Of a DNA stretch of 64,000 nucleotides, positions 774-28,084 are shown one piece after another. Within the stretch, counting starts at the first letter, position 1. Each line of letters starts with the position of its first letter. The translations under genes were made by a program, and so were the position numbers. Below the pieces are notes generated by a model. That model was given only the letters and a program-made list of their open reading frames with translations, was not told where the DNA came from and searched no databases. Source of the stretch: an uncultured Gemmatimonadaceae bacterium (lineage in GTDB: Bacteria; Gemmatimonadota; Gemmatimonadetes; Longimicrobiales; Gaopeijiaceae); contig CAZOYA010000002.1 of NCBI GenBank assembly GCA_964583815.1, positions 596 through 64,595 of the forward strand. Reading direction: 5' to 3'.

Positions 774-1819
774 GCCGGCCGCCCGGGCCGGGGCCCGGCG
801 CGGGGTCGGGGGACGGCGATGCGCCCGTCGTGGAGGCGTCCGGGCCGGCGTCCGGGGCGTGGGAGGAGCACGCGCTCCTGGTGGACGCGCCGGACGAGGG
901 GGAGCGGCTCGACCGTTTCGTGGCCGCGCGGCTCGAGCTGTCGCGCACCCGTGTCCAGAAGCTCCTCGAGCGGGGGCACGTGCTCGTGGACGGGCGTGCG
1001 GCCCGCAAGTCCGAGCCGCTCGCCGCCGGGGCCCGCGTCTCGGTTCGGGTCCCGCCGCCCGAGACGGTCCTCATGGAGCCGGAGGACATCCCCCTCCGGA
1101 TCGTCCACGAGGACGCCGACCTCGTGGTGGTGGACAAGCCGGCCGGGCTGGTCGTCCACCCGGCGCCCGGGCACCGCTCCGGGACGCTCGTGAACGCGCT
1201 CCTCTGGCACGTGCGCGATCTCTCGGGCGTGGGCGGGCGGCTCCGCCCGGGCATCGTGCACCGGCTCGACCGCGACACCTCCGGGCTCATGGTCGTGGCG
1301 AAGACCGACCGGGCGCACCACGGGCTCCAGGACGCGCTGCGGCGCCGGAGGGTGCGCCGCCGGTATCTCGCGGCCGTGTGGGGCCATCTGCGGGAGGCGG
1401 AAGCGACGATCGATGCGCCCATCGCGCGGGACCCGCGCGAGCGGAAGCGGATGGCGGTCGTCGAGGGAGGGCGCCCGGCGCGCACCCGGATCCGCGTGGA
1501 GGAGCGCTGGGCCCGCGCCGACCTGATCCGCGCGGCGCTCGAGACCGGCCGGACCCACCAGATCCGCGTGCACCTCCGTCACCTCGGCCATCCCGTGGTC
1601 GGGGACGCGGTCTACGGGGCCGGATGGGAGCGGGGGCTCGGGGGCGAGAGCCGCGCCTGGGTGGAGGAGCTCGCACGGAGGACGCCCCGGCAGTTCCTGC
1701 ACGCCGCCGAGCTCGCGTTCGATCACCCGGCGAGCGGCGAGCGCATGCGCTTCACCGCGCCGCTGCCTCCCGATCTCGCGGCCGCCGCGGCGTGGGCGCG
1801 GGGCGCCCGCGCCGGGTAG
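770..1819 (+). CDS. rluD: RluA-family 23S rRNA pseudouridine synthase (RluD-like)
   Basis: S4-like N-terminus followed by the motifs HRLDRDTSGLMVVAKT and GRTHQIRVHL. The ATG at 770 overlaps the ileS stop (ATGA). Confidence 0.9.
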   Translation: MSRPPGPGPGAGSGDGDAPVVEASGPASGAWEEHALLVDAPDEGERLDRFVAARLELSRTRVQKLLERGHVLVDGRAARKSEPLAAGARVSVRVPPPETVLMEPEDIPLRIVHEDADLVVVDKPAGLVVHPAPGHRSGTLVNALLWHVRDLSGVGGRLRPGIVHRLDRDTSGLMVVAKTDRAHHGLQDALRRRRVRRRYLAAVWGHLREAEATIDAPIARDPRERKRMAVVEGGRPARTRIRVEERWARADLIRAALETGRTHQIRVHLRHLGHPVVGDAVYGAGWERGLGGESRAWVEELARRTPRQFLHAAELAFDHPASGERMRFTAPLPPDLAAAAAWARGARAG

Positions 1820-1859
1820 GCGGGGCGGCGCCCGGGGCCGGCGAAACGCGCACATCTCT

Positions 1860-1888
1860 TTGATATCCGGCGTTTCGGGCCGATACTT
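1860..1888 (+). promoter_or_regulatory. candidate sigma-70-type promoter, TTGATA-N17-ATACTT (or N16-GATACT)
   Basis: One of the few AT-rich islands in the window, about 75 nt upstream of the DnaA-like gene. Confidence 0.3.
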
Positions 1889-1963
1889 TAACGCTCCCGT
1901 TCCACGGCGGCTCGTCGCCGTCGCGACACGTCTCCCGAGCGGAAAACCCGCGCCACGCGCCCC

Positions 1964-3964
1964 ATGTCGGATCTCGATCCCAAGCTGACGTTCGAGTCCT
2001 TCGTGGTCGGTCCGGCCAATCGGCTGGCCTCGGCCGCGGCGCGTCGCGCCGCCGATTCGCCCGGGTCGAGCTACAATCCGCTCTTCCTGTATTCCGCCTC
2101 GGGGCTCGGCAAGACCCACATCCTGACCGCGATCGCCCACCAGGCGCAGCGCGCGGTGCCGGGCGGCAAGCTCGAGTACATGGCGCTCGAGAAGTACCTG
2201 GAGCGGCTCGAGCAGGCGCTCGAGGGCGGGGAGCGTGACGGCGTGTCGATCTTCGACAACATCGACATCCTGCTCCTCGACGACGTCCAGTTCCTCACGG
2301 GGCAGCAGGAGGCGCAGGAGATGCTCCTGCGCACGCTCGACCAGCTGTCGGCCGCCGGGAGCCAGATCGTGCTGGCGAGCGACCGTCCGCCGGCGGACAT
2401 CGACGGCCTCGACGCGCGGCTCCTGTCCCGGTTCAGCGGGGGCCTCATCGTCGACATCGGCCCGCCGGAGTACGAGACGCGGGTCGCGATCATCCGCCGG
2501 AAGGCCGAGGAGCGCGGCGACACCCTGGAGCCGGGCGTCGCGGAGGCGCTCGGCCGGCATCCGTTCCGCAACGTCCGCGAGCTCGGCGGCGCGCTCAACC
2601 GGATCCTCGCCACGCAGGAGCTCGAGGGGCGGCGGGTCCTCGCCGAGGAGGTCCCGCTGCTGCTGGGCAGCGTCGCGCCGAGCCGCGATACGATCGGCGA
2701 GGCCGAGCGCGGGGAGTTCGACAGCTTCCTCGACGACCTCCTGCACACCGTCGCGGAGGTCGTGGAGGAGAAGGAGGAGCCCTGGCGGCGGGCCTTCCGC
2801 GACGCGATCGACCAGGCCGAGCGGGAGGGCTTCTCGGCGCTCCGCCTCGAACCGTACGTCGACGGCACGGAGCCGGACGGCTGGGAGGAGATCGTCCGGC
2901 GCTTCCGCTCCGACGTGGAGCGGCTCCGGGAGATCGAGAACGAGCTGGACGAGCTGGGAAACCCCTGGCCCGAGGCGGCCGCCGGCGTGCTGCGCGACCC
3001 CGACCGCGTGCAGGAAGCGGAGAGCCTGCTCACGTCCGTGCGCGAGCGGCAGCGGCCCTTCCCGCGGCTCGCCCGTGGCCAGATGCTCGACGACCTCGAC
3101 GACCATCCGAAGATCGCGCTGAAGGCGGCGGCGCAGCTCGTCGCCACGGAGCGGCCGCAGTACAACCCGCTCTTCGTGTGGTCGAAGGACGAGGACCTCG
3201 CGAAGACGCTGCTCGGGGCCGCCGGACGCAGCTACCAGTCGATCCACTCGGGCACGCGCATGGCGGTGACGTCGGTGCGCGAGTTCGCGGACGACTTCAT
3301 CCGCGCGCTCGGGGCGGGGGTGGCCGGCGCCTGGCGGGAGCGCTGGTGGACCCTCGACCTCCTCCTCGTGCACGGGGTGCAGGCGCTCTCGGAGACGGAG
3401 CGCGCCCAGGACGAGTTCTTCCACCTGTTCGAGGCGCTGAAGCGCCGCGGGGCGCGGGTGATGCTAGTGGCGGACCGTCCTCCGGCCGCCCTCGAGGGGA
3501 TCGACGATCGCCTCCGCTCCCGCTTCGAGGGCGGGCTCGTGCTGGAGCTCGACGGGGGCACGCCGGGCGGCGACCTGATCCTCGAGGACGAGCGGGTGTC
3601 CCTCGACGCGAGCCTCATGGTGCCGGGCTTCTCCCTCGATCCCCGGTCGCGCTCGGCCGAGGCCGACGCGTTCGCCACGGCCACGGACGCGACCCCGGGC
3701 TCCGGCGAGCCCGCGGGCGTCGGCGCCAGGGGCACGTCGGCGGATCGGGCGCCTTCGCCTGCCGACGGATCGGGAAGCGGGGCCGCGGCCGTGGGGGCAC
3801 GCGCGGACACGGGGGCCGGGCGGGCCACGGGTCCGGAGATCGCGCCCGTCCAGCCGCAGGCGTCCCGTTCGCAGGGCGGGGGCGTGTGGTACCCGAGCCC
3901 CGAGAACGTGGTCATCCACTGGCCGCGCATGGACGAGTTCCTGATCGAGGAGCTGGACGCGTGA
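1964..3964 (+). CDS. DnaA/Hda-like protein with two tandem DnaA domain-III (AAA+) modules and no DNA-binding domain IV
   Basis: Module 1 is intact: Walker A SASGLGKTH, Walker B LLLDDVQF, RLLSRFSGGL box. Module 2 (about aa 383-530) repeats the same layout (YNPLFVW..., DRLRSRFEGGL), but Walker A is replaced by SKDEDLAKT and Walker B by LLLVHGVQ. The tail is acidic and low-complexity. Confidence 0.8.
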   Translation: MSDLDPKLTFESFVVGPANRLASAAARRAADSPGSSYNPLFLYSASGLGKTHILTAIAHQAQRAVPGGKLEYMALEKYLERLEQALEGGERDGVSIFDNIDILLLDDVQFLTGQQEAQEMLLRTLDQLSAAGSQIVLASDRPPADIDGLDARLLSRFSGGLIVDIGPPEYETRVAIIRRKAEERGDTLEPGVAEALGRHPFRNVRELGGALNRILATQELEGRRVLAEEVPLLLGSVAPSRDTIGEAERGEFDSFLDDLLHTVAEVVEEKEEPWRRAFRDAIDQAEREGFSALRLEPYVDGTEPDGWEEIVRRFRSDVERLREIENELDELGNPWPEAAAGVLRDPDRVQEAESLLTSVRERQRPFPRLARGQMLDDLDDHPKIALKAAAQLVATERPQYNPLFVWSKDEDLAKTLLGAAGRSYQSIHSGTRMAVTSVREFADDFIRALGAGVAGAWRERWWTLDLLLVHGVQALSETERAQDEFFHLFEALKRRGARVMLVADRPPAALEGIDDRLRSRFEGGLVLELDGGTPGGDLILEDERVSLDASLMVPGFSLDPRSRSAEADAFATATDATPGSGEPAGVGARGTSADRAPSPADGSGSGAAAVGARADTGAGRATGPEIAPVQPQASRSQGGGVWYPSPENVVIHWPRMDEFLIEELDA

Positions 3965-3980
3965 GCGCGGAGGCTGCCTG

Positions 3981-5600
3981 ATGGCCATCGAGGGCGCGCT
4001 CCAGGACGTCAGCCTGGCCGACATCTGCCAGCTCCTCGGCATGGGCCGCAAGACCGGGTGCCTGAGCATCACGGACCGCTCGAACTTCGGCTACATCTAC
4101 TTCCAGAAGGGCCGGGTGATCTACGCGTCCGTGCTCAACCGGCGCGACCGCCTGGGCGAGCTCCTGGTGCGCAACCACGTGATCACGCGCAAGGATCTCT
4201 CGGCCGCCATGGAGACCCAGTCGAAGCAGCGGAACCGGCGGCTCGGCGAGATCCTGATCGCGCAGGGGGCGCTCAGCCGCGAGGACCTGCGCCGCTACAT
4301 CCAGCTCCAGGTGGAGGAGGCGGTGTACCACCTCTTCACCTGGCCGCAGGGCTCCTTCCACTTCGACAGCGACCAGATGCCCGAGGAGGACGGGCTCCTC
4401 CTCGTGGACATCCCGCCCGAGGCGCTCCTCATGGAGGGGGCGCGGCGCGTCGACGAGTGGAGCCTGGTCGAGAAGAAGATCCCCTCCTTCGACCTCGTCT
4501 TCCAGCTCGACAAGAACCCCGAGGACGTCGACGGCGACTTCGAGCTCACGCGCGAGCAGAAGAAGCTCCTCCCGTTCATCGACGGCCAGCGCACGGTCCA
4601 CGAGATCATGAACGAGGCGGGCCTCGTCGAGTTCGACACCGGCAAGGCGCTCTACGGGCTCATCCAGGCCGGCTTCGTGTCCCGCTCCGGCGAGCGCAGC
4701 ACCCAGGAGGAGACGGGGGGCGACGAGGCGCTCCAGCAGCACCTGAACGTCGGGGTGGCGTTCTACCGCTCGGGGATGCTCGAGGATGCCGCGCGGGAGT
4801 TCGAGGAAGCGCTCGCCATCGATCCCCGCCAGGCGCGCGCGAACTTCATGATGGGGCTGATCGCGTTCCGGCGGGCGCGGCTCGAGGAGGCGCTCGAGCA
4901 CTTCGGCTCGATGCCCCCGGGGTACGCGGAGAGCTACGCGGTCCATCGCAACACCGCCCTCACCCTCGAGGCGCTCGGCCGCTACGACGAGGCGCTCGAG
5001 GCGCTCGAGGCCGCCAGGGCGGTGCGTCCCAAGGATCACGAGATCTACCTCGCCCGCGGGATCATCCACTTCAAGGCGCGGCGGATCTCCGACGCGCTGG
5101 AGTCGTTCCGTCGCTACCGCACCTATCCCGGGCTGAAGGTCCCGGCCCAGGAGTACTACGCCTACACGGTGCTCGCGGCCGCCGTGGGGGGCGACCTCGA
5201 CTTCGCCGTCGCGGTCGGACAGGAGGGGATGGGGCATTATCCCGACTCCGGTCCGATCATGGTGAACACGGGCGCCGTGCTCGAGCGCAGGGGCGACGTG
5301 GACGCCGCCGCGGCGCTCTACAAGCGGGCGGTCGCGGTGACGCCGCCGCCCCCGCAGGCGCACAAGAACCTGGGCGACCAGGCCTACGCGCACGGCGACA
5401 TGGACGCGGCGCGGGTGCAGTACGAAAAGACGGTGAAGCTCGCGCCGCGCCTCGGCGACGACGTGTACCTGAGGCTCGGGACGATGGCGTACAAGGACAA
5501 CGACCGGGACGTGGCGCTGCTCCTGTGGCGGCGCGCCCTGGACATCAACCCGCACAACGAGGCGGTACGCGCCAACCTGGAGATGCTCGGAAGCGAGTGA
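3981..5600 (+). CDS. DUF4388-domain protein with tandem MshEN-like 24-residue motifs and C-terminal TPR repeats
   Basis: N-terminus GALQDVSLADICQLLGMGRKTGCLSI...IYFQKGRVIYA (DUF4388 pattern). Then RLGELLVRNHVITRKDLSAAMETQ, a 6-aa spacer, and RLGEILIAQGALSREDLRRYIQLQ. TPR-like repeats follow from about aa 250. A GGAGG lies 7 nt upstream of the ATG. Confidence 0.85.
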   Translation: MAIEGALQDVSLADICQLLGMGRKTGCLSITDRSNFGYIYFQKGRVIYASVLNRRDRLGELLVRNHVITRKDLSAAMETQSKQRNRRLGEILIAQGALSREDLRRYIQLQVEEAVYHLFTWPQGSFHFDSDQMPEEDGLLLVDIPPEALLMEGARRVDEWSLVEKKIPSFDLVFQLDKNPEDVDGDFELTREQKKLLPFIDGQRTVHEIMNEAGLVEFDTGKALYGLIQAGFVSRSGERSTQEETGGDEALQQHLNVGVAFYRSGMLEDAAREFEEALAIDPRQARANFMMGLIAFRRARLEEALEHFGSMPPGYAESYAVHRNTALTLEALGRYDEALEALEAARAVRPKDHEIYLARGIIHFKARRISDALESFRRYRTYPGLKVPAQEYYAYTVLAAAVGGDLDFAVAVGQEGMGHYPDSGPIMVNTGAVLERRGDVDAAAALYKRAVAVTPPPPQAHKNLGDQAYAHGDMDAARVQYEKTVKLAPRLGDDVYLRLGTMAYKDNDRDVALLLWRRALDINPHNEAVRANLEMLGSE

Positions 5601-6652
5601 GACGCGCCGGAAGGGCCTCGTGCTCGGCGGCGCGTGTCGCGGCCCTCGTGCTCGCGCTGCTGCTCGGCGCGGGGACCGCGGGGTCGGAGGCGCAGGTTCC
5701 GCCCACCCTCGACGGCGCTCCCTACCAGAGCATCCGCGGCCACCGGGCCACCGTGTACTTCGTCGCGGGGCAGGCCGCGCTCGCCGAGCGGGTGCGCACC
5801 CTCCTCGACGCGCAGCCGCCGTTGCCGGCCCTCCCGCCCGAGCTGCCGAGCGGGGTCCATGCCGTCCTCGCGCACACGCCGGCCGCCCTCGACGCCGTCA
5901 CGGGCGGCGTGGTCCCGGAGTGGCGGGCCGGGGTCGCGGTCCCGGCCCGGATGCTCCTGGTGATCCCGACCGGGGAGGGCACGGGCGTGCTCGATGCGGA
6001 GGGCCTCCGCACGATCCGCCACGAGTGGGCGCACCTCGGGCTGCACGCCTACCTCGAGGGGCGCCGGGTGCCGCGCTGGTTCAGCGAGGGCTACGCGGAG
6101 TGGGCGGCGGGCGGTTTCGATGCGATGGACGCGTGGCGCCTGCGGGTCGGGCTCGCGCTCGGCAGCACCCCCTCGCTCGACTCGGTCGCGCTGGCCTGGC
6201 CGGCCGGGCGCGAGCAGGCGCGCACGGCATACCTGCTCGCCGCCAGCGCCGTCTCCTACCTCGTGGAGGCGGGGGGCGAGCGCGGGCTCGCGCTCTTCCT
6301 CGAGCGCTGGCGGGCCGGCGGCTCGTTCGAGGAGGCGCTGCGCGCCACCTATGGCGTCACCAGCGGCCAGCTCGAGGAGGACTGGCGCGCGTACGTGAAG
6401 GACCGCTTCGGCTGGCTGTTCGTCCTCGCCCGCTCGAGCGTCTTCTGGCTCGTGCTCGCCGTGGTCCTCCTCTTCATGGTGCGCGTGCGACGGCGGCGGA
6501 ACCGGGAGGCGCTCGCCCGGCTCCGGGCCGACGAGCCGCCGGACGTGCCGGCGTACTGGGAGGACCCGGAGGGACGTCCCCCGGAGCCGCCCGCGCCGCC
6601 CCCGGCTCCCGGCGAACACCCGGTGGACCCACGGGACGGGTTGGGGGGGTAG
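5597..6652 (+). CDS. membrane-anchored MA-clan (HExxH) metallopeptidase-like protein
   Basis: The GTG at 5597 overlaps the upstream stop (GTGA). Signal peptide [19 protein letters not shown]; HEWAH followed by FSEGYAEW; C-terminal TM helix [13 protein letters not shown] and a Pro-rich tail. Confidence 0.75.
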
Positions 6653-6660
6653 CATCGAGC

Positions 6661-8067
6661 ATGACCGATCCGACCATGCACCGCATCCTGGTCGTCGACG
6701 ACGACGTCGACGGCCTCGAAGTCCTGCGCATGCGCCTCACGCACGCAGGGTACGCCGTCGAGACCGCCGAGAGCGCCGAGCGCGCCCTGTCGCGCGTCAG
6801 CAAGTTCGAGCCCGAGCTCATCGTGACCGACGTCCGCATGTCGGGGATGAACGGTCTCGAGCTGCTCGAGAAGGTCCGCAGCACCATGGAGAACGTCGAG
6901 GTCGTCGTCATGACGGCCCACGACGACATGGAGACGGCCGTGACCGCCATGAAGGCCGGCGCGTTCGACTTCCTCGTGAAGCCGGTCGACCCCAAGGCGG
7001 TCCAGGGGCTCGCCGAGCGCTGCTTCCGCGAGCAGGCGCTCGCGATCGCGGCCCGGGTGGAGAGCGACCGGAAGACGGACGTGCAGGGTGCCCTGCCGCG
7101 TGGCCAGCTCGTCGGGCGCAGCCCCGCCATGATCGAGATCTACAAGACGATCGGCGTGCTGGCCCGCAACCGCGCGACGGTGCTCGTCCGCGGCGAGACC
7201 GGCACCGGCAAGGAGGTGATCGCGCGGGCGATCCACCAGCACTCCGTGCACGCGGACGAGCCCTTCATCGCGGTGAACTGCACCGCGCTCACGGACACGC
7301 TGCTCGAGTCCGAGCTCTTCGGTCACGTGAAGGGCGCGTTCACCGGGGCCGCCGGGGCCCGCAAGGGCTACTTCGAGCTCGCCAAGAAGGGCACGATCTT
7401 TCTCGACGAGATCGGCGACACGAGCCTCGAGCTCCAGGCGAAGCTGCTGCGCGTGCTCCAGGAGCGGCGCTTCTACCCGGTCGGCGGCGAGGAGGCGCGA
7501 CGCACCGAGGCGCGGGTGATCGCGGCCACGCACCAGCCGATCGAGAGGCTCATCGAGGAAGGGCGCTTCCGCGAGGACCTGTACTTCCGGCTCCAGGTCG
7601 TGGAGATCGAGGTCCCGCCGCTCCGCGCGCGCCCGGAGGACATCGAGCTGATCGCGCATGCGCTCCTCGGCCGCATCCGCGACGAGACGCACCGCGACGT
7701 GCGGCGGATCTCCGACGCGGCGATGGCGAAGCTGCGTGGCCACGACTGGCCCGGGAACGTGCGCGAGCTGGAGAACGCGCTCATGCGCGCCGCGATCATG
7801 GCGCGCGGGACGATCATCGGCCCCGACCACCTGATCCTCGGCGACGAGGAGGGGCCGAGCATCCACGGGGTCGATCTCTCGCTGCAGAGCGCCATCGGCC
7901 GGCACATCCGCATGGTGCTGGAGGGCGCGGACGGGGACGAGCTCCTGGCGGCCGAGCAGCTCCGGATCAGCGTCGACGAGCTGCGCGGGCACCTGGCGAG
8001 CGACGGCGGCTGGATCCGGCGGAGGTCCCGGTCGGCCGACGCGCCGGCCTGGCTCGAGCTGGACTGA
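6661..8067 (+). CDS. sigma-54-dependent response regulator (NtrC family), no adjacent kinase
   Basis: Receiver domain (ILVVDDD...[13 protein letters not shown]), AAA+ domain with GETGTGKE and GAFTGA, and a C-terminal HTH ([16 protein letters not shown]). Confidence 0.9.
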
Positions 8068-8104
8068 CCGGGCTGCGCGGTCCGCTCCGCCCGTTCCGAT
8101 ATGA

Positions 8105-8133
8105 TTGACCGGGCCGGATCCGGCGGATAGCAT
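8105..8133 (+). promoter_or_regulatory. candidate promoter TTGACC-N17-TAGCAT
   Basis: AT-richer island. The -10 ends about 9 nt before the ATG at 8143, which implies a very short or absent leader. Confidence 0.3.
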
Positions 8134-8142
8134 AGGGGCGCC

Positions 8143-8403
8143 ATGACGTCCCGAGCCTCCCAGAGCACCCGACCCCGCCGGTCCGAGAAGCGGGAAGCGC
8201 GCGTGCGCCGCACCGCCTCCGGTGCTGCGGGCGAGGACCGTCGCGCCCTTCGCTTCACGAAAGTGAACGCGATCTTCGCCGGGTCGGGGCTGCTGACCCT
8301 CGCGCTCGGGTACTGGCTCCTCGGCGAGGGCTCGATCACGGCCGCGCCGCTCCTGCTCGTGCTCGCCTACGTGGTCCTGCTCCCGCTGGCGATCATCCGC
8401 TAG
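8143..8403 (+). CDS. small membrane protein (basic N-terminus, two predicted TM helices)
   Basis: High GC3. Hydrophobic segments IFAGSGLLTLALGYWLL and AAPLLLVLAYVVLLPLAII. No family recognised. Confidence 0.55.
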   Translation: MTSRASQSTRPRRSEKREARVRRTASGAAGEDRRALRFTKVNAIFAGSGLLTLALGYWLLGEGSITAAPLLLVLAYVVLLPLAIIR

Positions 8404-8488
8404 CGAGCCCCCGTCGGCGACTCCTCGCCGGCGACCCTCCCGACGTACCGCCCCGGGGCGGACGCCCGCTCTTGCGTCCGGCCGTGCG

Positions 8489-8518
8489 CATCCATACGAT
8501 ATCGTATATATACGGATG
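8489..8518. promoter_or_regulatory. composite operator-like dyad: two overlapping perfect palindromes (ATACGATATCGTAT, CGTATATATACG) flanked by CATCC/GGATG
   Basis: Read directly from the sequence. It overlaps a TTGCGT-N17-TACGAT promoter-like element (8472-8500), about 60 nt upstream of the PadR gene. Confidence 0.45.
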
Positions 8519-8573
8519 CGTAGAGATGGGCGGCCTTCCGACCGCCCTTCCGGACCTGCCCCGGAGCCGACCG

Positions 8574-8903
8574 ATGAAGACGCCCTGGTTCCACATCCTG
8601 CTCGCGCTCGCCGACGCCACGCTGCACGGCACCGCGATCATGGAGGACGTGCTCGACCGCTCCGGGGGTCGGGTGCGGCTCTGGCCCGGCATGCTCTACG
8701 GATCGCTGAGGGACCTGGAGGAGGCCGGCTGGATCCGCGAGGTGGATGCGCCGCCGGACGCGCCCACGGAGGGCGGCCGGCGACGGTTCTACCGGATCAC
8801 GCGCGAGGGGCGGCGGGTGCTGCACGACGAGGTCGAGCGTCTGAGCGCGCTCGTGCGGGCGGCCCGGGCGAAGCGGATCGGCGCGGGGGGCGAGCACGCA
8901 TGA
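8574..8903 (+). CDS. PadR-family transcriptional regulator
   Basis: wHTH pattern: HILLALADATLHGTAIMEDV...LYGSLRDLEEAGWI...RRRFYRITREGRRVL. Confidence 0.9.
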   Translation: MKTPWFHILLALADATLHGTAIMEDVLDRSGGRVRLWPGMLYGSLRDLEEAGWIREVDAPPDAPTEGGRRRFYRITREGRRVLHDEVERLSALVRAARAKRIGAGGEHA

Positions 8904-11587
8904 GCCCGCGCTCGGCGCCTCGCGACCCGGGCGACGGGGACGCGGCACGCGCGCGTCGCGTCTACCGTGTGCTGCTGAGGGCCTTCCCGCAGGCCCATCG
9001 CGAGCGGTACGGACCGGACATGGAGGAGGCGTTCCTCGCGCTGCTCGAGCGGGAGGCGGCGCGGGCGGGGCCGTGGGGCCGCGTGCGATGCTGGCTCGGC
9101 GCCGGCCTCGATGCGTGGGGTCGGGGGCTGGCGGCGCGCGCGCGGGGCGTGCGCCGCGGACGCGGGGGAAGACGGACGAGAGGAGGGGAGGGGATGTCCA
9201 CGTTCCTGTCGGACGTACGATTCGCGCTCCGGACCCTGGCGAGGCGGCCGGCCTTCACGGCGGCGGCGGTCTCGACGATCGCGCTCGGAATCGGCGCGAA
9301 CACGGCGGTGTTCACCGTCGTGAACGGGTTCCTGCTGGAGCCGCTCCCGTACGAGGAGCCGGAGCGGCTCGTCTCGCTCGTCGACGTGAACCCCGAGCTC
9401 GGGCGTCCGGCGAGCAGCGTCAGCCCGGCCAACGCGTGGGACTGGCGATCACGCAGCCGGACGCTCGAGGATCTCGCGCTCTTCTACGAGGACGGCTTCA
9501 ACCTCACCGGGGACGGCCTGCCCGAGCTCGTTCCGGCGGTGCGGGTCACCCCGAACATCCTGCGGGTGCTCGGGCGCACGCCCGCCCTCGGCCGCGACTT
9601 CTCGTCCGACGAGGTGGGCGAGGGCCGCCACCAGGTCGCGATCCTCACCGACGGCTTCTGGGCTCGCCGGTTCGGCCGCGATCCCTCCGTGGTCGGAGCG
9701 ACCCTCGACCTCGACGGCTACGCGTACACGGTCGTCGGGATCATGCCGCCGGACTTCCGGTTCCTCGACGAGATGCCGGACGTGCTCGTGCCGCAGGACG
9801 TGCACCCGGACGGCGCCGAACGGGCGGGCCGCTACGCCGAAGCGCTCGGGCGCCTCGCGCCCGGTGCCACCCTGGACGGCGCGCGCGAGGAGCTTCGCGG
9901 TCTCGCCCGCGCGCTGGAGGCCGAGCACCCGGACGCGAACCGAGGCTGGACGGTGGAGGTGGTCCCGCTCCGCGACCAGCTCCTGGGACGGATGGCGCGG
10001 CAGGCGTCCCACATGCTCATGGCGGCCGTGGGCCTGGTGCTCCTGATGGCGTGCGTCAACGTGGCCAACCTGCTGCTGGCACGCGCAGGATCGCGCGGCC
10101 GCGAGCTCGCGGTCCGGGCGGCGCTCGGGGCCGGCCGGGGGCGGGTCGTGCGCCAGCTCCTGACGGAGAGCCTCGTGCTCGGCGTGCTCGGCGGCGGGCT
10201 CGGGCTCGTCCTCGGCGTCGTCGGCTCCCGCGGGATCGTCCGGGCACTCCCCTCCACCCTCCCTCCCGTCTTCCGCTTCGAGGTGGACGGCACCGTGCTC
10301 GCGTTCGTGGGCCTCGTCACGGTGGGCTCGGTGCTGGTGTTCGGAATCGTCCCGGCGCTCGGCTCCGCCCGGTCCGTCGCCGAAGCGCTTCCGGGAGGCG
10401 GACGCGCCACGCCCGACCGGAGGGCCGGACGCCTCGGCGCGTCGCTCGTCGTGCTCCAGATCTCGCTCGCCGTGGTGCTCCTCGTCGGCGCCGGTCTCCT
10501 GATGAAGAGCATCGCCGGGATGCGGAGCCGGGATGTCGGGTTCGATCCCGGGAACGTCCTCGCCGTGCGGCTCGCGCCGCCGAGCAGCGCGTATCCGGGC
10601 ACGGACGAGCTGCGCACCTTCTGGAGCGAGGTGGAGGAGCGCGTCGCCGCGCTTCCCGGGGTCGTCGCGGTCGGCCAGACCCAGAGCCATCCGCTCATGG
10701 GCGAGAACTGGGGCCATACCGTCCGGATCGCAGGGGGGGAGGAGACGGACCTCCCCGTGCGCACCACCTGGGCCTCCCCCGGGCTCTTCGAGGCGCTTCG
10801 CCTCCGCGTCGTGCGCGGCCGGGCGATCGAGACGTCGGACCGCGCGGACGCTCCGCCCGTGGCGGTCGTGAACGAGACGTTCGTGGCGCGCTACCTCGAC
10901 GCCGCGTCCGACCCCCTGGCCGAGCAGCTCGTGCTCGAGCCGGGCGTCGTGATCCCGATCGTCGGCGTCGTCGAGGACGTCGTCGAGCGCGGCGTGGACG
11001 CGCCGCCCGAGCCGGCCTGGTACGTGCCCGCCAGCCACGCGGGCGCACGGACCCGCTCGCTCGTCCTGAGGACGTCCGGTCCACCCGAGGAGGCCCTGCC
11101 CGAGGTCCGGGCGGCGATCTGGTCGGTGGATCCGGATCTCCCCGTGCAGGACGTCGAGACGATGGAGGGGCTGATCCGGCGGCGCCTCCGCTCCTACGAC
11201 GTGATCGCCGAGCTGATGGCGACCTTCGCGCTCCTCTCGCTCGCGCTGGGCGTGGTCGGGATCTACGGGGTGACCGCGCAGGGGACCGAGCGCCGGAGGA
11301 GGGAGATCGGGCTCCGCGTGGCCGTCGGAGCGGGGAAGGGGGAGGTGGTCCGCATGGTCCTGCTCGACGGGGCCCGCCGGGCGGCGCTCGGCATGGCGCT
11401 GGGGCTCGTGGCGGCGACGGGTTTCTCGAGGCTCCTCGACAGCATGCTCGTGGGCGTGTCGCCGGACGACCCGGCGGTCTTCGCTTCGGTGGCGGGGCTC
11501 CTCGCCGCGGCCTCCCTCGCCGGCGTGTACCTCCCCGCCCGGAGAGCGGCGCGCGTGGATCCCGTGCAGGCGCTGGCGGGCGAGTAG
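8900..11587 (+). CDS. duplicated orphan FtsX/MacB-type permease with N-terminal prefix domain (ADOP-like), paralogue 1
   Basis: The ATG overlaps the PadR stop (ATGA). A 98-aa prefix precedes the core start MSTFLSDVRFALRTLARRPAF. There are two FtsX halves, each TM-large loop-3TM. No ATPase gene is nearby. Confidence 0.9.
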   Translation: MSPRSAPRDPGDGDAARARRVYRVLLRAFPQAHRERYGPDMEEAFLALLEREAARAGPWGRVRCWLGAGLDAWGRGLAARARGVRRGRGGRRTRGGEGMSTFLSDVRFALRTLARRPAFTAAAVSTIALGIGANTAVFTVVNGFLLEPLPYEEPERLVSLVDVNPELGRPASSVSPANAWDWRSRSRTLEDLALFYEDGFNLTGDGLPELVPAVRVTPNILRVLGRTPALGRDFSSDEVGEGRHQVAILTDGFWARRFGRDPSVVGATLDLDGYAYTVVGIMPPDFRFLDEMPDVLVPQDVHPDGAERAGRYAEALGRLAPGATLDGAREELRGLARALEAEHPDANRGWTVEVVPLRDQLLGRMARQASHMLMAAVGLVLLMACVNVANLLLARAGSRGRELAVRAALGAGRGRVVRQLLTESLVLGVLGGGLGLVLGVVGSRGIVRALPSTLPPVFRFEVDGTVLAFVGLVTVGSVLVFGIVPALGSARSVAEALPGGGRATPDRRAGRLGASLVVLQISLAVVLLVGAGLLMKSIAGMRSRDVGFDPGNVLAVRLAPPSSAYPGTDELRTFWSEVEERVAALPGVVAVGQTQSHPLMGENWGHTVRIAGGEETDLPVRTTWASPGLFEALRLRVVRGRAIETSDRADAPPVAVVNETFVARYLDAASDPLAEQLVLEPGVVIPIVGVVEDVVERGVDAPPEPAWYVPASHAGARTRSLVLRTSGPPEEALPEVRAAIWSVDPDLPVQDVETMEGLIRRRLRSYDVIAELMATFALLSLALGVVGIYGVTAQGTERRRREIGLRVAVGAGKGEVVRMVLLDGARRAALGMALGLVAATGFSRLLDSMLVGVSPDDPAVFASVAGLLAAASLAGVYLPARRAARVDPVQALAGE

Positions 11588-11744
11588 CCGGCCGGAGCGC
11601 CGCCGGCGAGCGCGGCGCGCGCTCGCACGGGGGCGTGTGGCCTCCGCCCCGACGCGGTATCTTCGGACCGCGAGTCGACGTTCCGCGCGCTCCACCGTCC
11701 ACCCGCCCCACCGCCTCCACCCCACCGCTTCGCCCGCCGACTCC

Positions 11745-13874
11745 ATGACCTCCCCCACCGGCTCCCACTGGCTCCGGGACGTCGCGGGCCACGCCGGGCT
11801 CGCGCTGGACCTGCCCGTGCGCCCCAACGTCGTGGAGCTCCGTCGTGCGTGGACGCGGGTGGTCGAGGCCTGCCGCACGAGCGACGAGGAGTTCACGCGG
11901 CGCGTGGCGGGACATTTCCGCATCGGCGTCGCCGACGTCGCGCAGCGCGATCCCCAGGCGGTGGCGCTCATCCCCGAGGGCGTGTCGAGGCGCCACGGCG
12001 TGCTCGGCCTCAGCCTCACCGAGCGCAACATCGTCGTCGCCACCTCCGATCCGTCCAACCGGTCGGCGTGGCGCGAGGTGGTGGAGCACACGGGCCGGCA
12101 GCCGGTCTACCTGATGGCGAGCCCGGTCGCGATCGCGGAGGCGCTCGAGGAGGCCTACGCCCCGAAGCGCGCGCCCCGAAACAGCCTCGAGGAGCTCGTG
12201 CGTGAGGTCGCGCGCAGCGACTTCCAGGTGGTGACCTCGGACGGCCGCGGGCGCTTCACGAGCTTCGAGCTCGAGGATCCGGCCGTGGTGCGCCTGGCCG
12301 ACGTGCTGCTCCAGCAGGCGGTCCGCCACCGCGCCACCGAGGTCCACGTCGAGCCGGGACGGGAGCGCGGCCGGGTCCGCTACCGCATCGACGGCGTGCT
12401 CCAGCACGTGGTGGCGCTCCCGCCCGAGGCGCACGACCGCCTCGTGGCGCGCCTCGCCTACCTGGCGCGCGGCGGGGCGACCGGCGAGGAGGGCGACAGC
12501 TTCACCGTGCACGTCTCCGAGACGCTGCAGCGGCGGGCGCTCCTCCTCTCGACCCCGACGCCCGACGGGGAGCTCGTCACGATCCGGCTCGTGGCGCCCG
12601 CGGAGGTCCCCACGCTCGAGCGTCTCGGCTTCGAGGCCGACGACCTCGAGCGGATCCGCGACGTGCTCCGGCGCAACGACGGGCTCGTGCTCGTGGCCGG
12701 CCCCGCGCGGGCCGGGACCTCCACGTTCGTGTACGCCTGCATGCGGGCGCTCGCGTCCCGCAACGTGCTCTCGCTCGAGAGCCGCATCGAGTGCCACGTG
12801 CCGGGCGTCACGCAGGTGCGCTACGACTCCGCCACGGGGCTCTCGTTCGCCGAGACGCTCCAGCAGCTTCTCGATCGGAACCCCGACGTGGTGCACGCCG
12901 GCGAGGTGCGGGACCTCGCCACCGCCCGGATCGCGCTCCGCACGGCGGTGACCGGACGGAAGGTGCTCGCGACCGTACACGCCCCCGACGCCCCTTCCGG
13001 GCTCCGGCGGCTGCTCGATCTCGGGCTCGCGCCGGGGCGGCTCGCGGAGTCGCTCCACGCGGTGATCTCGCTCCGGCTGGTACGACGGCTCTGTCCGCAC
13101 TGCGCCGAGACGGTCGCCGGCCCGAACGACCTCCCCCCGCGCGAGCGCAAGCTCGCGGAGCTGCTGTCGGTGCTCCCGCCCCGACGCGCGGTCGGGTGCC
13201 GCGCCTGCGCGGGCACCGGATATCTCGGGCAGCTTCCGGTGGCCGAGATCCTCGTGCTCGACCGCACGATGCGCCAGCTCGTGGAGGAGGGCTACGACGA
13301 CGCGGCGCTCCACCTGGCCGCGCGCATGGAGGGGATGCGCCCGCTGGGCGAGTCCGCGATCGACCGGGCCCGGAAGGGGCACACGACCGTCGAGGAGGTC
13401 GAGCGGGTGCTCGGCGTCGTGCCCACCCGGGCCGAGACGCCGCGCTCGGCGGGCCCCGTGCTGCTCGTCGAGGACGAGCCGCAGGACCGTCTCCTCGTCG
13501 GGTCCATCATCAGGGACCTCGGATTCGAGGTGATCGAGGCCGAGGACGGTGAGGCCGCGCTGGAGCTCCTCCGGGAGCGCGGCGGTCGCTTCTCGCTCGT
13601 GGTGCTCGACCTGGTCCTGCCCGGGATCGACGGCATCGAGGTGCTGCGGCGCCTCCGGCAATCGCTGGACACGCAGTACCTCCCGGTGCTCGTGCTCACG
13701 AGCACCACGGACCCGCGCCGCGAGATCGAGCTGCTCGACGAGGGCGCGGACGACTACGTGCTGAAGCCCGTCGCCGTGGATCGCTTCCAGGCACGCATCC
13801 GGGCCGTGCTGCGCCGGAGCGGCGTACGGATCGAGACCGGCGGGAGCGCCGAGGCGGTCGGTGCCGGCGGCTAG
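11745..13874 (+). CDS. GspE/PilB-like secretion-ATPase homologue with degenerate catalytic motifs, fused to a C-terminal response-regulator receiver domain
   Basis: T2SSE_N-like N-domain (ALIPEGVSRRHGVLGL...VVATSDP). Walker A reads GPARAGTST, with Lys replaced by Thr. Asp box is degenerate (LESRIE). NPDVVHAGEVRD and the tetra-Cys motif CPHC...CRAC are retained. REC domain: LLVEDE...VVLDLVLPGIDG...DYVLKP. Confidence 0.85.
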   Translation: MTSPTGSHWLRDVAGHAGLALDLPVRPNVVELRRAWTRVVEACRTSDEEFTRRVAGHFRIGVADVAQRDPQAVALIPEGVSRRHGVLGLSLTERNIVVATSDPSNRSAWREVVEHTGRQPVYLMASPVAIAEALEEAYAPKRAPRNSLEELVREVARSDFQVVTSDGRGRFTSFELEDPAVVRLADVLLQQAVRHRATEVHVEPGRERGRVRYRIDGVLQHVVALPPEAHDRLVARLAYLARGGATGEEGDSFTVHVSETLQRRALLLSTPTPDGELVTIRLVAPAEVPTLERLGFEADDLERIRDVLRRNDGLVLVAGPARAGTSTFVYACMRALASRNVLSLESRIECHVPGVTQVRYDSATGLSFAETLQQLLDRNPDVVHAGEVRDLATARIALRTAVTGRKVLATVHAPDAPSGLRRLLDLGLAPGRLAESLHAVISLRLVRRLCPHCAETVAGPNDLPPRERKLAELLSVLPPRRAVGCRACAGTGYLGQLPVAEILVLDRTMRQLVEEGYDDAALHLAARMEGMRPLGESAIDRARKGHTTVEEVERVLGVVPTRAETPRSAGPVLLVEDEPQDRLLVGSIIRDLGFEVIEAEDGEAALELLRERGGRFSLVVLDLVLPGIDGIEVLRRLRQSLDTQYLPVLVLTSTTDPRREIELLDEGADDYVLKPVAVDRFQARIRAVLRRSGVRIETGGSAEAVGAGG

Positions 13875-24784: not shown

Positions 24785-24918
24785 CGTGACCGCAAAGCTC
24801 GATGCAAAGGCCTTTCACGACAAGGCCTTCGGACGCGGACCGGCGGGGGGGCATGGTCAGCGGGCCGCGCTGCGGTGTAGACTGCCGACGCAGCGCGTCC
24901 CACCCCTCCGAGCCCCCC

Positions 24919-26445
24919 ATGCCGCGGACCCCACCGAGACCCCCGCAGGGCCGCCGTCCGAGCTCGCTCTCCGTGCGGCTCCTCGTGCCGCTCGTGCTCG
25001 CGGTCGGGGGCGTGATGGCGGCGTTCGCGGCGTGGGCGCTGCTGCAGCGCGAGCGGACCCTGGTCGCCGACGCCAGGCGCGAGACGCAGGCGTTCGGCAC
25101 GGCCCTGGGTCTCGCCTTCGAGGCGGCCTTCGCCGACCCCGATCGCGCCGCGGTTCCGGAGATCGTCGAGCGGATCTCCCGGCAGCCGAGCGTGCACGGC
25201 GTCGTGGTCTACGACCTCACGGGACGACCCCTGGCGGGTCCCGGCGCGCTCGCCGACGAGGCGGAGTTCTCCACCCCGGAAGAGGTGCGTCGGGTCCTCG
25301 CGGCCGGCGGGGCCGCCGACTTCGAGCGGATGCAGGACGGCGTGGACGTCTACTCGGTGCTGCGCCCGATCCTCGGCGCGGAGGGGGCGGTCGTGGGCGC
25401 GTTCGAGGTGCTCCAGCCGCTCTCGTTCGTGGCGGAGGAGAAGGCCCGAACCCGCCTCCGCTTCGCCCTCAACACCGCCGCGCTCCTGGCCGCGGTGACG
25501 CTGCTGCTCCTCTGGCTCGTCCGACGGCTCGTGTCGGAGCCGCTCCGGGGCTTCGCGGCCGACGTGCGCGAGCTGGGCACGGGCCGCCTGGACCATCGCG
25601 TGAGCGCGGGCGTGGCGATCGCCGAGTTCGCGACCATCGCCGGGGAGCTCAACCGCATGGCGGCGGGGCTGCAGGCGGCCCAGGCGGAGCTGGTGCGGAG
25701 CGGGGAGGAGCGGCTCGAGCTCGAGCGCCAGGTCCGGAAAGCCGAGAAGCTGGCCATGGTCGGCCGCCTCGCCGCCGGGCTCGCCCACGAGATCGGGGCG
25801 CCGCTGCACGTCATCCGGGGGCGCGCGGACCTGCTGCTCGCGGCTTCGGAGCGCCGCCCGGCGGATGCGCGCCAGCTCGGCATCATCGTGCAGCAGATCG
25901 ACCGCATCACGCGGATCGTGCGCAAGCTGCTCGACTTCGCCCGCACCGGCGAGCCGTCCCGGGAGGTCGTGGATCTCGTCCCGATCGTGGACGGGGTGCT
26001 CGAGCTCGTCTCGCTCGAGCTCTCGCGCACGGGCATCCGGAGTTGCCGCTCGGGCGTGCCGCGGGCGCTCGTGGTGGGGGACCCGGATCAGCTCCAGCAG
26101 GTCCTGCTGAACCTCGTGCTGAACGCGTCGCAGGCGCTGGCGGAGGCTCCCGGCGAGCGCGCCATCGAGGTGCGCGTATCGCGCGCCGCGGGGAACGGCG
26201 CCGGGGAGATCGTCGTCGAGGTCGTCGACTCCGGCCCCGGGATCCCGGCCGAGTTCCGGGACCGCGTCTTCGAGCCCTTCTTCACGACCCGGGGGGGACG
26301 CGAGGGCACCGGGCTGGGGCTCGCCGTGGCGCGGTGGATCGTCGAGGAGCACCAGGGACGGCTCGACGTGGCCTCCGGGAACGGATCGGGGACGGTGCTC
26401 TCGGTCGCGCTTCCCGCCGGCGAGGGAGCGGACGATGGCCGGTGA
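24919..26445 (+). CDS. sensor histidine kinase (periplasmic sensor, HAMP, HisKA, HATPase_c)
   Basis: Two TM helices, H-box LAHEIGAPLHVI, N box LLNLVLNASQA, G boxes DSGPGI and GTGLGLA. Start chosen at the ATG at 24919; alternatives lie upstream. Confidence 0.85.
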   Translation: MPRTPPRPPQGRRPSSLSVRLLVPLVLAVGGVMAAFAAWALLQRERTLVADARRETQAFGTALGLAFEAAFADPDRAAVPEIVERISRQPSVHGVVVYDLTGRPLAGPGALADEAEFSTPEEVRRVLAAGGAADFERMQDGVDVYSVLRPILGAEGAVVGAFEVLQPLSFVAEEKARTRLRFALNTAALLAAVTLLLLWLVRRLVSEPLRGFAADVRELGTGRLDHRVSAGVAIAEFATIAGELNRMAAGLQAAQAELVRSGEERLELERQVRKAEKLAMVGRLAAGLAHEIGAPLHVIRGRADLLLAASERRPADARQLGIIVQQIDRITRIVRKLLDFARTGEPSREVVDLVPIVDGVLELVSLELSRTGIRSCRSGVPRALVVGDPDQLQQVLLNLVLNASQALAEAPGERAIEVRVSRAAGNGAGEIVVEVVDSGPGIPAEFRDRVFEPFFTTRGGREGTGLGLAVARWIVEEHQGRLDVASGNGSGTVLSVALPAGEGADDGR

Positions 26446-27811
26446 GCGCATCCTCCTCGCCGAGGACGACCGGGACCTGCGCCTCCTCCTCGCCGAGGTG
26501 CTCGACGGGGCCGGCTACCGCGTGCGCGCGGTAGCCTCGGGCGCGGAAGCGCTGCACGAGCTCCGCGATCCGGAGCTCGATCTCGTCGTCACGGACCTGA
26601 TCATGCCGGGCGCGAGCGGGAAGGACGTCCTGCAGGTGGCGCGTGAGCTGCGGACCGATCTGAACGTGCTCGTGATCACGGCGTTCGGCACGATCGAGTC
26701 CGCGATCGAGCTCGTGAAGCAGGGCGCTTTCGACTATCTGACGAAGCCGTTCTCGAACGAGGAGCTGCTGCTGTCGGTGCAGCGCGCGCTGGAGGAGAGC
26801 CGGCTGCGCCGAGAGAGCGCCTCGGCCGCCCGCGACCCGGCCGTGCCGAGGGGGTTCGTGGGCGCGAGCGGGCCCATGCGCGCGCTCTTCGAGATGATCC
26901 GGAAGGTCGGCCCCTCCCCGCTGCCGGTACTGGTGACCGGGGAGACCGGCACCGGGAAGGAGCTGGTCGCGCGCGCCCTGCACGACGCGAGCGGGCGCGG
27001 GCCCTTCGTCGCGCTCAACTGCGCGGCGCTCCCGGAGAACCTGCTCGAGTCGGAGCTCTTCGGACACGAGCGCGGCGCGTTCACGGGGGCGGACCGGGCG
27101 AAGCCGGGCCTCTTCGAGGCCGCCGACGGGGGGACGCTCCTGCTCGACGAGATCGGCGAGCTTCCGCTCCCCCTCCAGCCCAAGCTGCTCCGCGCGCTCG
27201 AAGGCGGCGAGATCCGGCGGGTCGGCGCGACGCGGCCGCTCACCGTCGAGGTGCGCGTGATCGCGGCCACCAACCGCGATCTCGAGGAGGAGGTCGCGGC
27301 CGGCCGGTTCCGCGAGGACCTGTACTGGCGACTGAACGGGCTGTCGCTGCACGTGCTGCCGCTCCGGGAGCGCCCCGCGGACATCCCGGCGCTCGTCTCC
27401 CACTTCGTCGAGCGGCACCGGGCCCAGCTCGGAGCCCGGGATGGCGGCGGGCGGGAGGACGGCGGCCCCCGGTTCACGGCCGAAGCCATGGGTCTGCTCA
27501 CGAGCTACGCGTGGCCCGGGAACGTCCGGGAGCTCCGCACGCTCGTCGAGCGGTGCGTGACGCTGGCCGACGGCGGCGTCGTCGACGCGAGCCTCCTTCC
27601 CGATCGCGTGCGGCGCGGCGGGCTCGCGCGTGCGACCGTCCGGGACGCCGCCGCCCGGCAGGTGCGCCTCGCCGAGCTCGAGCGGGCCTACATCCTCGAG
27701 ATCCTGCGCAGCACCGGGGGCAACAAGTCCCGGACGGCCGAGATCCTCGGGCTCGACCGCAAGACGCTCTACCGGAAGCTCCAGGAGTACGCGACCGAGA
27801 GCGAGGCGTAG
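26435..27811 (+). CDS. sigma-54-dependent response regulator (NtrC/AtoC family)
   Basis: Overlaps the kinase gene by 11 nt. REC domain (ILLAEDD...VVTDLIMPG), [14 protein letters not shown], and Fis-type HTH TAEILGLDRKTLYRKL. Confidence 0.9.
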   Translation: MAGERILLAEDDRDLRLLLAEVLDGAGYRVRAVASGAEALHELRDPELDLVVTDLIMPGASGKDVLQVARELRTDLNVLVITAFGTIESAIELVKQGAFDYLTKPFSNEELLLSVQRALEESRLRRESASAARDPAVPRGFVGASGPMRALFEMIRKVGPSPLPVLVTGETGTGKELVARALHDASGRGPFVALNCAALPENLLESELFGHERGAFTGADRAKPGLFEAADGGTLLLDEIGELPLPLQPKLLRALEGGEIRRVGATRPLTVEVRVIAATNRDLEEEVAAGRFREDLYWRLNGLSLHVLPLRERPADIPALVSHFVERHRAQLGARDGGGREDGGPRFTAEAMGLLTSYAWPGNVRELRTLVERCVTLADGGVVDASLLPDRVRRGGLARATVRDAAARQVRLAELERAYILEILRSTGGNKSRTAEILGLDRKTLYRKLQEYATESEA

Positions 27812-27975
27812 CATCCCGCCCCGCCGGTGGGGCATTTCGCCCCGGTGCGGGTGGCGCGGAGGGCCGGCGGGGCCCCGGGGGAGTGGGCCTGGCCGGTGTG
27901 CAACTCGTTGACCTCCCACGGGATGCGGCGTCCGTGAGCCCTCTTGCCGCGCCGGTCCCGGAAACGGCACGCTTC

Positions 27976-27990
27976 GCGCATGGGCACCCC
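27976..27990 (+). promoter_or_regulatory. candidate sigma-54 (-24/-12) promoter GGCACG-N4-GCGCA
   Basis: GG and GC elements with canonical spacing, about 95 nt upstream of pal and immediately downstream of the NtrC-type gene. The -12 TT is replaced by GC. Confidence 0.35.
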
Positions 27991-28084
27991 GCGCGACAGC
28001 GTCGCGGACACGCGACGCGCGCAGGGACGCGCCGTCCCCGTCGCGGACCAGCACACGGGCGGGGCCAGGACCCCGGAGGAACGG

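Follow-up and report, generated by a model that had tools for sequence, protein, structure and literature searches.

The 64-kb window analysed here, the whole of a 64,000-nt stretch of contig CAZOYA010000002.1 from an uncultured Gemmatimonadaceae bacterium, carries a cluster of five plus-strand genes at positions 1964–8403 (termed G1 to G5, with related loci given L-numbers) that resolves, at a probability of about 0.5, into two separable units: unit A (G1 and G2), a putative accessory of a chemosensory and cell-polarity apparatus, and unit B (G3, G4 and G5), a membrane and sigma-54 unit. G1 (1964–3964, stop TGA at 3962–3964) encodes a tandem DnaA-type AAA+ protein of 666 amino acids (aa) and G2 (3981–5600, start ATG at 3981) a 539-aa PATAN/MshEN/TPR protein, together forming a translationally coupled cytoplasmic pair. 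G3 (5597–6652, start GTG at 5597–5599) encodes a membrane HExxH peptidase of 351 aa, G4 (6661–8067, start ATG at 6661) a 468-aa REC–sigma-54 activator, and G5 (8143–8403) a small protein of 86 aa with two transmembrane (TM) helices. The initial annotation of this DNA had described the first four genes as packed like an operon, and its open reading frames (ORFs) and junctions were all confirmed: a 16-nt gap with GGAGG separates G1 from G2 (3965–3980), the GTG of G3 overlaps the TGA of G2 (5598–5600), a gap of 8 nt lies ahead of G4 (6653–6660), and the gene order is kept in relatives. The fifth conserved gene and the degenerate helix-turn-helix (HTH) of G4 were absent from that annotation. Window G+C is ~74%, and codon-position G+C singles out one coding frame for G1, G2 and most other genes, with third- and second-position values (0.95–0.97 and 0.40–0.48) marking the G1 and G2 frames as coding.

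Named homologues point to the Gemmatimonadota, most likely the Longimicrobiales, as the group of the source organism. Within the lineage of the window, two contigs with G1 homologues 61% and 72% identical share the window order, running ftsH–cdaA–exbBDD–tonB–yggS–divIVA–ileS–rluD and then G1–G2–G3–G4–G5, with unrelated genes downstream. The order rluD–G1–G2–G3–G4–G5 was found at L001/L002, L003, L091, L092, L093 and L100. A metagenome scan with G4 returned ~15 orthologous loci at 67–76% identity; weaker matches (≤55%) were other NtrC-family genes lacking the module. At every informative G4-orthologue locus G3, G4 and G5 stand together, and at three of the eight (L089, L095 and L096) rluD is followed by G3–G4–G5 with G1 and G2 missing. 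Flanking sequence of L095 agrees with that of L093 at 99.5% identity over 5085 nt on the upstream side and at 97% on the downstream side, with 3167 nt missing from L095; what is left is an in-frame stub of 92 aa, made of G1 residues 1–86 and the last six residues of G2, whose stop still overlaps the start of G3. L089, compared with L001, lacks ~3.2 kb and encodes a 65-aa in-frame stub (G1 residues 1–48 joined to the last 17 of G2) that also retains the stop/start overlap with G3. The promoter-like site upstream of G1 is retained in both of these variants, and no trace of G1–G2 was seen at L096. In these deletions G1 and G2 behave as one dispensable unit, and G3, G4 and G5 as another, retained unit. 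The variants can be regarded as a set of natural knockouts.

A genome scan with a G2 alignment gave at least 566 loci, of which the best 80 (GTDB species loci L007–L086) were mapped by tblastn; all are labelled Gemmatimonadota/Gemmatimonadales except one Acidimicrobiia contig and one unclassified ‘Bacterium HR33’ record. Across these 80 loci the order is near-invariant, with CheA–CheC–TPR(~886)–PATAN(~380)–TPR–Roadblock–157 aa–small GTPase–G1–G2 followed by CheR–CheD–CheB–CheW–TPR–G3–small protein–TPR–rsmH. G1 lies directly before G2 at 65 of 67 loci, the small GTPase is present at 60 of 61, and CheR directly follows G2 at 67 of 72. G3 is present at 44/47 loci and followed by a small G5-homologous protein at 41/47; G4 is present within ±10 kb at none (0/80). 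Domain identities were checked for the GTPase (Pfam Arf), Roadblock, PATAN, AAA_22 and CheA proteins. At L004 (37% identity) the order up to G1 is rluD–CheW–CheY–CheA–CheC–TPR(896)–PATAN(380)–TPR/Roadblock–Roadblock–158 aa–Arf-like GTPase, and from G1 onward G1–G2(538 aa)–CheR–CheD–CheB–AAA_22–CheW–CheW–TPR–Peptidase_MA_2–TPR–rsmH, while L005 (32% identity) has an L004-like order without CheA/R/D/B that leads into rsmH–ftsL–ftsI–murE. The AAA_22 ATPase among the Che genes resembles a PEP-CTERM-associated ATPase (179 bits, below the cut-off). The four-gene order of the initial annotation holds in the window lineage; in Gemmatimonadales G4 is missing and G1–G2 lie apart from G3. G3 and G5 occur phylum-wide and G4 is found between them only in the window lineage (Longimicrobiales-like); G3 and G5 are ancestral neighbours, with G4 a later, lineage-specific insertion. 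The Che/GTPase/Roadblock apparatus is intact around G1–G2 in the sister order Gemmatimonadales, and in the window lineage the pair looks like a retained, sometimes discarded, remnant of that apparatus.

More distant G1 relatives (31–33% identity) at L087 and L088 have Che, PATAN and TPR neighbours and other flanks, with the order CheW–CheY–CheA–AAA–CheW–CheC–TPR–PATAN–G1 at the former and G1–G2-like–CheR–CheD–CheB–TPR, with a PilT-like ATPase nearby, at the latter. At L006 (2681–13179) an N-terminal MshEN is fused to tandem DnaA-like modules in giant proteins of 921 and 1876 aa. They are accompanied by an MshEN protein of 421 aa and a single DnaA-like protein of 246 aa, and the whole set is bordered by a prepilin peptidase (A24) on one side and an MshEN–T2SSE PilB-like ATPase on the other. 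An exhaustive search of 1.84 billion representatives recovered a tandem DnaA-like family of ~550–700 aa, down to ~31% identity, with >4000 matches at 90% clustering. When the search was started from the L087 protein, tandem proteins ended after ~30 matches and ordinary DnaAs came next, which argues that the family is narrow, comprising Gemmatimonadota and a few possibly related metagenome-assembled genomes (MAGs). Only three labels fell outside the phylum: one MAG contig is labelled ‘Acidimicrobiia’, one partial sequence ‘Vicinamibacteria’, and a further relative ‘Cloacimonetes 4572_55’; binning errors may account for these. IMG gives many members the name ‘chromosomal replication initiator protein DnaA’, and NCBI uses ‘DnaA/Hda family protein’.

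As read from its sequence, G1 joins two DnaA-fold AAA+ modules in a pseudo-dimer: one site is ATP-competent, the other is dead and retains its arginine fingers, and a disordered tether of ~100 residues carries a conserved tail. Its Pfam matches consist of two Bac_DnaA stretches (PF00308, 258 bits) and no other domain; neither DnaA domain IV (PF08299) nor domain I (PF11638) is among them, both of which are carried by the true DnaAs retrieved in the family search. The replication-initiator-type ATPase without a DNA-binding domain that had been proposed for G1 was borne out. Domain 1 (residues 1–233) is intact and contains the full motif set of DnaA domain III, with Walker A (GLGKTH), Walker B (LLLDDVQF), SDRPP, sensors 1 and 2, the box VII arginines and the lid. 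Domain 2 (383–528) has lost the P-loop and Walker B and retains sensor 1 and the box VII arginines; the retained elements YNPLF, ERAQDEFFHLF, DRPP and DDRLRSRFEGGL are conserved over a 41-sequence family alignment. The AlphaFold model (mean predicted local distance difference test score, pLDDT, 81.9) shows an AAA+ domain plus lid at 1–233, a confident all-helical region at 252–363, an AAA+ core at 383–528 and a disordered stretch at 545–644 and a short terminal helix. Its top Foldseek match is domain III of Bacillus subtilis DnaA (TM-score 0.92, root-mean-square deviation 1.9 Å, 40% identity), with Hda weaker.

The C-terminal tail of G1 has the form KGGAWFPSxENVVxxWPxxxxLLxEELD and follows a variable low-complexity linker in ~118 of the 120 closest homologues. 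A version of it (..EKxVWxWPxxxxRLIEE..) is still recognisable in relatives down to ~31% identity. Docking of the terminal EELD in a carboxylate-clamp TPR of G2, in the manner of EEVD peptides, was considered and is weakened by the distant members, which end in EEWR, EELG, EDAR or EEY; the WP...L.EE motif ahead of the terminal residues is retained in them.

In G2, the PATAN/DUF4388 domain (PF14332) occupies residues 4–161 with 138.1 bits against a threshold of 25. Inserted within it, at residues ~57–109, is a tandem MshEN-type cyclic di-GMP (c-di-GMP) motif (NF053729, 51 bits, cut-off 38), which reads RLGELLVRNHVITRKDLSAAMETQ-SKQRNR-RLGEILIAQGALSREDLRRYIQLQ and contains two tandem 24-residue motifs of the form RLGxxLhxxGhh...Q. 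Residues 54–110 match the MshEN N-domain of the PilB structures 5tsg/6olj (E = 2.6e-7); by sequence, no PATAN structure was found in the PDB. The PATAN domain is followed by a small helical, winged-helix-like segment (~186–240) and then by ~9 TPRs, which dominate the Foldseek matches of the AlphaFold2 model (mean pLDDT 83.6). Orthologues are 44–86% identical and 537–541 aa long. The domain calls behind the DUF4388/MshEN-like/TPR second-messenger scaffold proposed in the initial annotation held, with the tandem motif above its family cut-off, and G2 is predicted to bind c-di-GMP through the insert. MshEN is said to have been described by Wang et al. in 2016 as the c-di-GMP receptor domain of MshE/PilB ATPases. 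G2 carries the same two tandem 24-residue motifs but has them inside PATAN, whereas those of MshE/PilB sit at the N-terminus of a secretion ATPase.

G3 was confirmed as an exported and anchored membrane peptidase, read as a periplasm-facing zinc enzyme: a signal peptide and a Peptidase_MA_2 domain (PF13485, 67.5 bits against 32.4) are followed by a TM helix near the C-terminus and a cytoplasmic tail that is basic and rich in proline. Its HEWAH...WFSEGYAEW segment, consisting of the HExxH and a downstream glutamate as in gluzincins of the Peptidase MA clan, is conserved in orthologues. HExAH...WFxEGYA, the TM segment and a tail with RRRR and ‘ARLRAxE..PxW’ are common to the window lineage and to the Gemmatimonadales-type loci L004 and L005. 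G5 has a basic N-terminus ahead of its two TM helices; its C-terminal 50 aa are nearly identical in L001 and L003, and it is 38% identical to a 61-aa gene that follows Peptidase_MA_2 in Gemmatimonadales.

G4 consists of a REC domain (PF00072, 101 bits) with the phospho-acceptor D57, a Sigma54_activat domain (PF00158, 228 bits) with GAFTGA, and AAA_lid_14. No Pfam match to the Fis-type HTH_8 (PF02954) was obtained on its last 89 residues even at E ≤ 10, and inspection of the C-terminus by eye revealed a Fis-type HTH remnant with an acidic ‘recognition’ helix, VDELRGHL, that is conserved in orthologues. The loss is considered real because a paralogous sigma-54 regulator in the same window (26435–27811), serving as an internal control, scores 57 bits for HTH_8. 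Against specific equivalogs (NtrC, AtoC, PrsR, ZraR, GlrR and others) all scores fell below the cut-offs, the best being NtrC (423.6 against 558.6). G4 had been called an orphan sigma-54 response regulator; its REC and AAA+ domains and its orphan status stand, and the degenerate HTH had been overlooked. As stated there, no histidine kinase is adjacent, the nearest (24802–26445) being paired with a sigma-54 regulator of its own. A scan for the sigma-54 promoter TGGCAC-N5-TTGC with ≤2 mismatches gave 19 matches against 36 expected, none with ≤1 mismatch, and identified no G4 target. Matches to PrsR, PrsT and the PEP-CTERM ATPase were all far below cut-offs, and membership of a PEP-CTERM system was rejected; an anti-phage defence system was likewise rejected, PADLOC having given generic AAA+/REC matches only.

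A consensus scan of 1700–8600 found only two sigma-70-like sites, against 0.2 expected from shuffles, both intergenic, and no terminator-like site within the cluster. The first, TTGATA-16 nt-GATACT (1860–1887, + strand), lies in the rluD–G1 spacer and corresponds to the promoter-like island that had been noted before G1. Ahead of G1, the window, L001, L003, L091, L093 and L100 share a -35/-10 pair of the form ‘CTTTT...~17 nt...CCGATACTTA’, and this conservation in six loci supports a real promoter at 1860–1887. The second site, TTGACC-17-TAGCAT (8105–8133, + strand), lies in the G4–G5 spacer and is probably not conserved. In L003 and L001 that spacer is just 11–32 nt long, so G5 is co-transcribed there. 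The five-gene cluster is real and probably co-transcribed.

Tight packing, the G2/G3 overlap, the 8-nt G3–G4 gap, a single upstream promoter-like site without an internal terminator, and an order conserved in 8/11 informative lineage loci would all suit a single signalling complex that governs sigma-54 transcription through the combined action of c-di-GMP (G2), ATP (G1), a membrane protease (G3) and phosphorylation (G4). Such a complex, which the initial annotation had considered plausible, is nevertheless unlikely, given that G4 is lineage-specific and absent from all 80 Gemmatimonadales loci, that four to five Che genes separate G1–G2 from G3 in that order, that three loci have lost G1–G2 jointly and kept G3–G4–G5, and that G3 and G4 are both missing from the neighbourhood of the distant G1 relatives. 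Mere inheritance of gene order, with functionally independent units sharing one transcript, is a rather improbable explanation: the units are separable and the upstream housekeeping order (ftsH...ileS–rluD) is also strongly conserved, yet G1–G2 adjacency persists in lineages with different flanks, MshEN–DnaA-like fusions exist, G1 and G2 are lost jointly, and G3, G4 and G5 are always together. From the adjacency, fusions, joint loss and co-occurrence, a functional link within each unit is well supported, and a link between the units is doubtful, although some functional cross-talk between A and B may occur.

We regard as very improbable a role for G1 as an Hda-like regulator of true DnaA, or as another replication or cell-cycle factor, in a cluster that would link c-di-GMP with replication or division. 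In sequence and fold G1 is closest to DnaA domain III and Hda, both of its domains have box VII arginines, and the cluster is flanked by yggS–divIVA–ileS–rluD and, in Gemmatimonadales, by rsmH–ftsL–ftsI of the dcw cluster. However, G1 lacks domains I and IV and falls below the family cut-offs of both DnaA (TIGR00362, 341.1 against 343.9, a score that is the sum of two domain III copies) and Hda (TIGR03420, 113 against 194.8); Hda, moreover, is a single-domain protein of ~230 aa. Direct reading of the G1 N-terminus, MSDLDPKLTF, showed no Hda-type clamp-binding motif (QL[SP]LPL-like), and Q occupies, in the live domain, the position of Escherichia coli R245, a basic single-stranded-DNA contact of DnaA. 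The neighbourhood of G1 invariably comprises Che, GTPase, Roadblock, PATAN and TPR genes, the Che context persists in distant members whose flanks are unrelated, and the natural deletions show the G1–G2 pair to be dispensable. It is almost certain that the G1 family does not serve to initiate replication. The cell-cycle control considered possible in the initial annotation is likewise not favoured, as the Che and small-GTPase/Roadblock context of G1–G2 elsewhere points to chemosensory or polarity signalling.

Several observations weigh against the two-unit reading itself. The deletion variants L089, L095 and L096 were seen in metagenome assemblies, at the assembly level, and 8 of the 11 informative lineage loci keep all genes together, with G2 and G3 translationally coupled in the window. 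Spread outside the phylum was thinly sampled (the best 80 loci), and one relative is labelled ‘Cloacimonetes’. A methyl-accepting chemotaxis protein (MCP) gene is not among the Pfam annotations of L004, L087 and L088, the 80 GTDB loci not having been searched for one. No Che, GTPase or Roadblock genes were found in the 64-kb window and related loci; for Che genes the window was searched by tblastn with the Gemmatimonadales proteins, and the window locus by itself does not make up a chemosensory pathway. A polarity or motility role in the window lineage is therefore an extrapolation from the sister order.

From the observed gene anatomy and domains, their conservation and genomic context, and the fusions and deletions, we infer a two-unit scheme that includes ATPase switching, partners for the tail peptide and a link to motility or polarity. 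In unit A, G1 would act as a nucleotide-dependent switch or oligomer rather than as a replication initiator, its live site being completed or regulated by the arginines of the dead domain and its tethered tail docking on a partner. G2 would serve as a c-di-GMP-gated adaptor that senses the nucleotide via the MshEN insert and scaffolds partners on its TPRs, and the pair would form an accessory module of a chemosensory and cell-polarity apparatus composed of Che proteins, a small Arf/MglA-like GTPase, Roadblock, PATAN and TPR proteins. In unit B, G4 would be phosphorylated by a non-adjacent kinase and would then activate sigma-54 promoters. The membrane proteins G3 and G5 may modulate G4, a speculation prompted only by strict co-occurrence and cytoplasmic tails. 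More broadly, it is possible, and we put it forward tentatively, that in Gemmatimonadota and a few relatives a DnaA/Hda fold was recruited for a non-replicative role, as a live-plus-dead switch or filament with a docking peptide that works with a c-di-GMP-binding PATAN–TPR scaffold in a chemosensory/small-GTPase polarity machine.

Every single domain described here is already known, as is the PATAN–MglB neighbourhood. PATAN proteins adjoin MglA/MglB genes (PMC4316618) and were among the candidate interaction partners examined in a study of Myxococcus xanthus MglA/SgmX (PMC11580455), and PilB1 and PilC are bound by the PATAN domain in Synechocystis (bioRxiv 10.1101/2021.06.11.447907). The closest described analogue of the unit A context is the M. 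xanthus Frz system with MglA/MglB(Roadblock)/RomR and SgmX. The Gemmatimonadales cluster similarly joins CheA/W/Y/R/B, a small Ras-superfamily GTPase, Roadblock, PATAN and large TPR proteins, the GTPase being identified by its Pfam Arf domain. In contrast, the M. xanthus system has no DnaA-type ATPase, and genes for Che proteins, the GTPase and Roadblock are all missing from the window. Like cyanobacterial PixG/PixE (PATAN–REC, PatA-type), regulators that bind PilB1/PilC, G2 would use PATAN as an output or interaction module of a chemosensory-type pathway, but it lacks a receiver, and its PATAN is fused to TPRs and contains the MshEN-type insert. Compared with DnaA domain III and Hda, G1 shares the AAA+ fold with initiator-type motifs and differs in that the module is duplicated with a catalytically dead second copy, domains I, II and IV and the clamp-binding motif are absent, extra parts are present in the form of a central helical region and a C-terminal peptide on a tether, and the genomic context is signalling instead of replication. 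Within the literature searched, no description was found of the G1 family, of a DnaA-type ATPase in such clusters or of the Gemmatimonadota cluster, in line with the earlier view that this combination is not a described pathway.

For unit B, comparison can be made with sigma-54 activators of other systems. The Che3–CrdA system of M. xanthus is a chemosensory pathway with an NtrC-like sigma-54 activator as its output, and FlgR of Helicobacter pylori and CtcC of Chlamydia are sigma-54 activators without a DNA-binding domain. G4 resembles them as an orphan REC–AAA+ activator with a degenerate HTH, encoded beside genes that are Che-associated in relatives; it differs in that the window has no Che kinase and that G4 still has an HTH remnant.

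Other features of the window were recorded alongside the cluster. Upstream lie the 3’ end of ileS (27–773, + strand; isoleucyl-tRNA synthetase C-terminus) and rluD (770–1819, + strand; pseudouridine synthase). The block yggS–divIVA–ileS–rluD, conserved upstream of the cluster in L001/L003, resembles the tail of the Firmicute dcw/ylm region, and the Gemmatimonadales cluster leads directly into rsmH–ftsL–ftsI–murE. Downstream, an AT-rich imperfect palindrome, CGCATCC-ATACGATATCGTATATATAC-GGATGCG (8487–8520), stands in 74% G+C surroundings just upstream of a MacB-like permease gene and may be an operator. In the corresponding ORF (8516–11587, 1023 aa) MacB_PCD begins only at residue 248, and the true start is therefore probably further downstream. 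This MacB/FtsX-type permease is followed by a secretion ATPase of the PilB/MshE type (T2SSE; 11637–13874, + strand), located 3.5 kb downstream of the cluster, with an N-terminal MshEN and an unusual C-terminal receiver domain; it is not beside the module in L001 or L003. A canonical histidine kinase/sigma-54 regulator pair with an intact HTH_8 (24802–27811, + strand) is followed by an OmpA-family gene (27944–28657). A 639-aa protein encoded at 46745–48664 (- strand) consists almost wholly of ankyrin repeats, and near-all-ankyrin proteins are uncommon in bacteria.

The G1 family is large, uncharacterised and routinely mis-annotated, and with G1 itself <3 bits under the TIGR00362 cut-off, DnaA and oriC risk being called falsely in MAGs of Gemmatimonadota. 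For annotation, the operon model is corrected by the addition of the fifth gene and by the division into two units. If the chemosensory or polarity role is true, the DnaA fold would be a further nucleotide switch for spatial organisation in bacteria, alongside MglA-type GTPases and ParA/MinD ATPases, with c-di-GMP as an input to the switch via the MshEN motif, and a new class of component would be added to bacterial polarity and chemosensory signalling. The conserved gene set, present phylum-wide, offers an entry to the study of motility and polarity in the poorly studied Gemmatimonadota.

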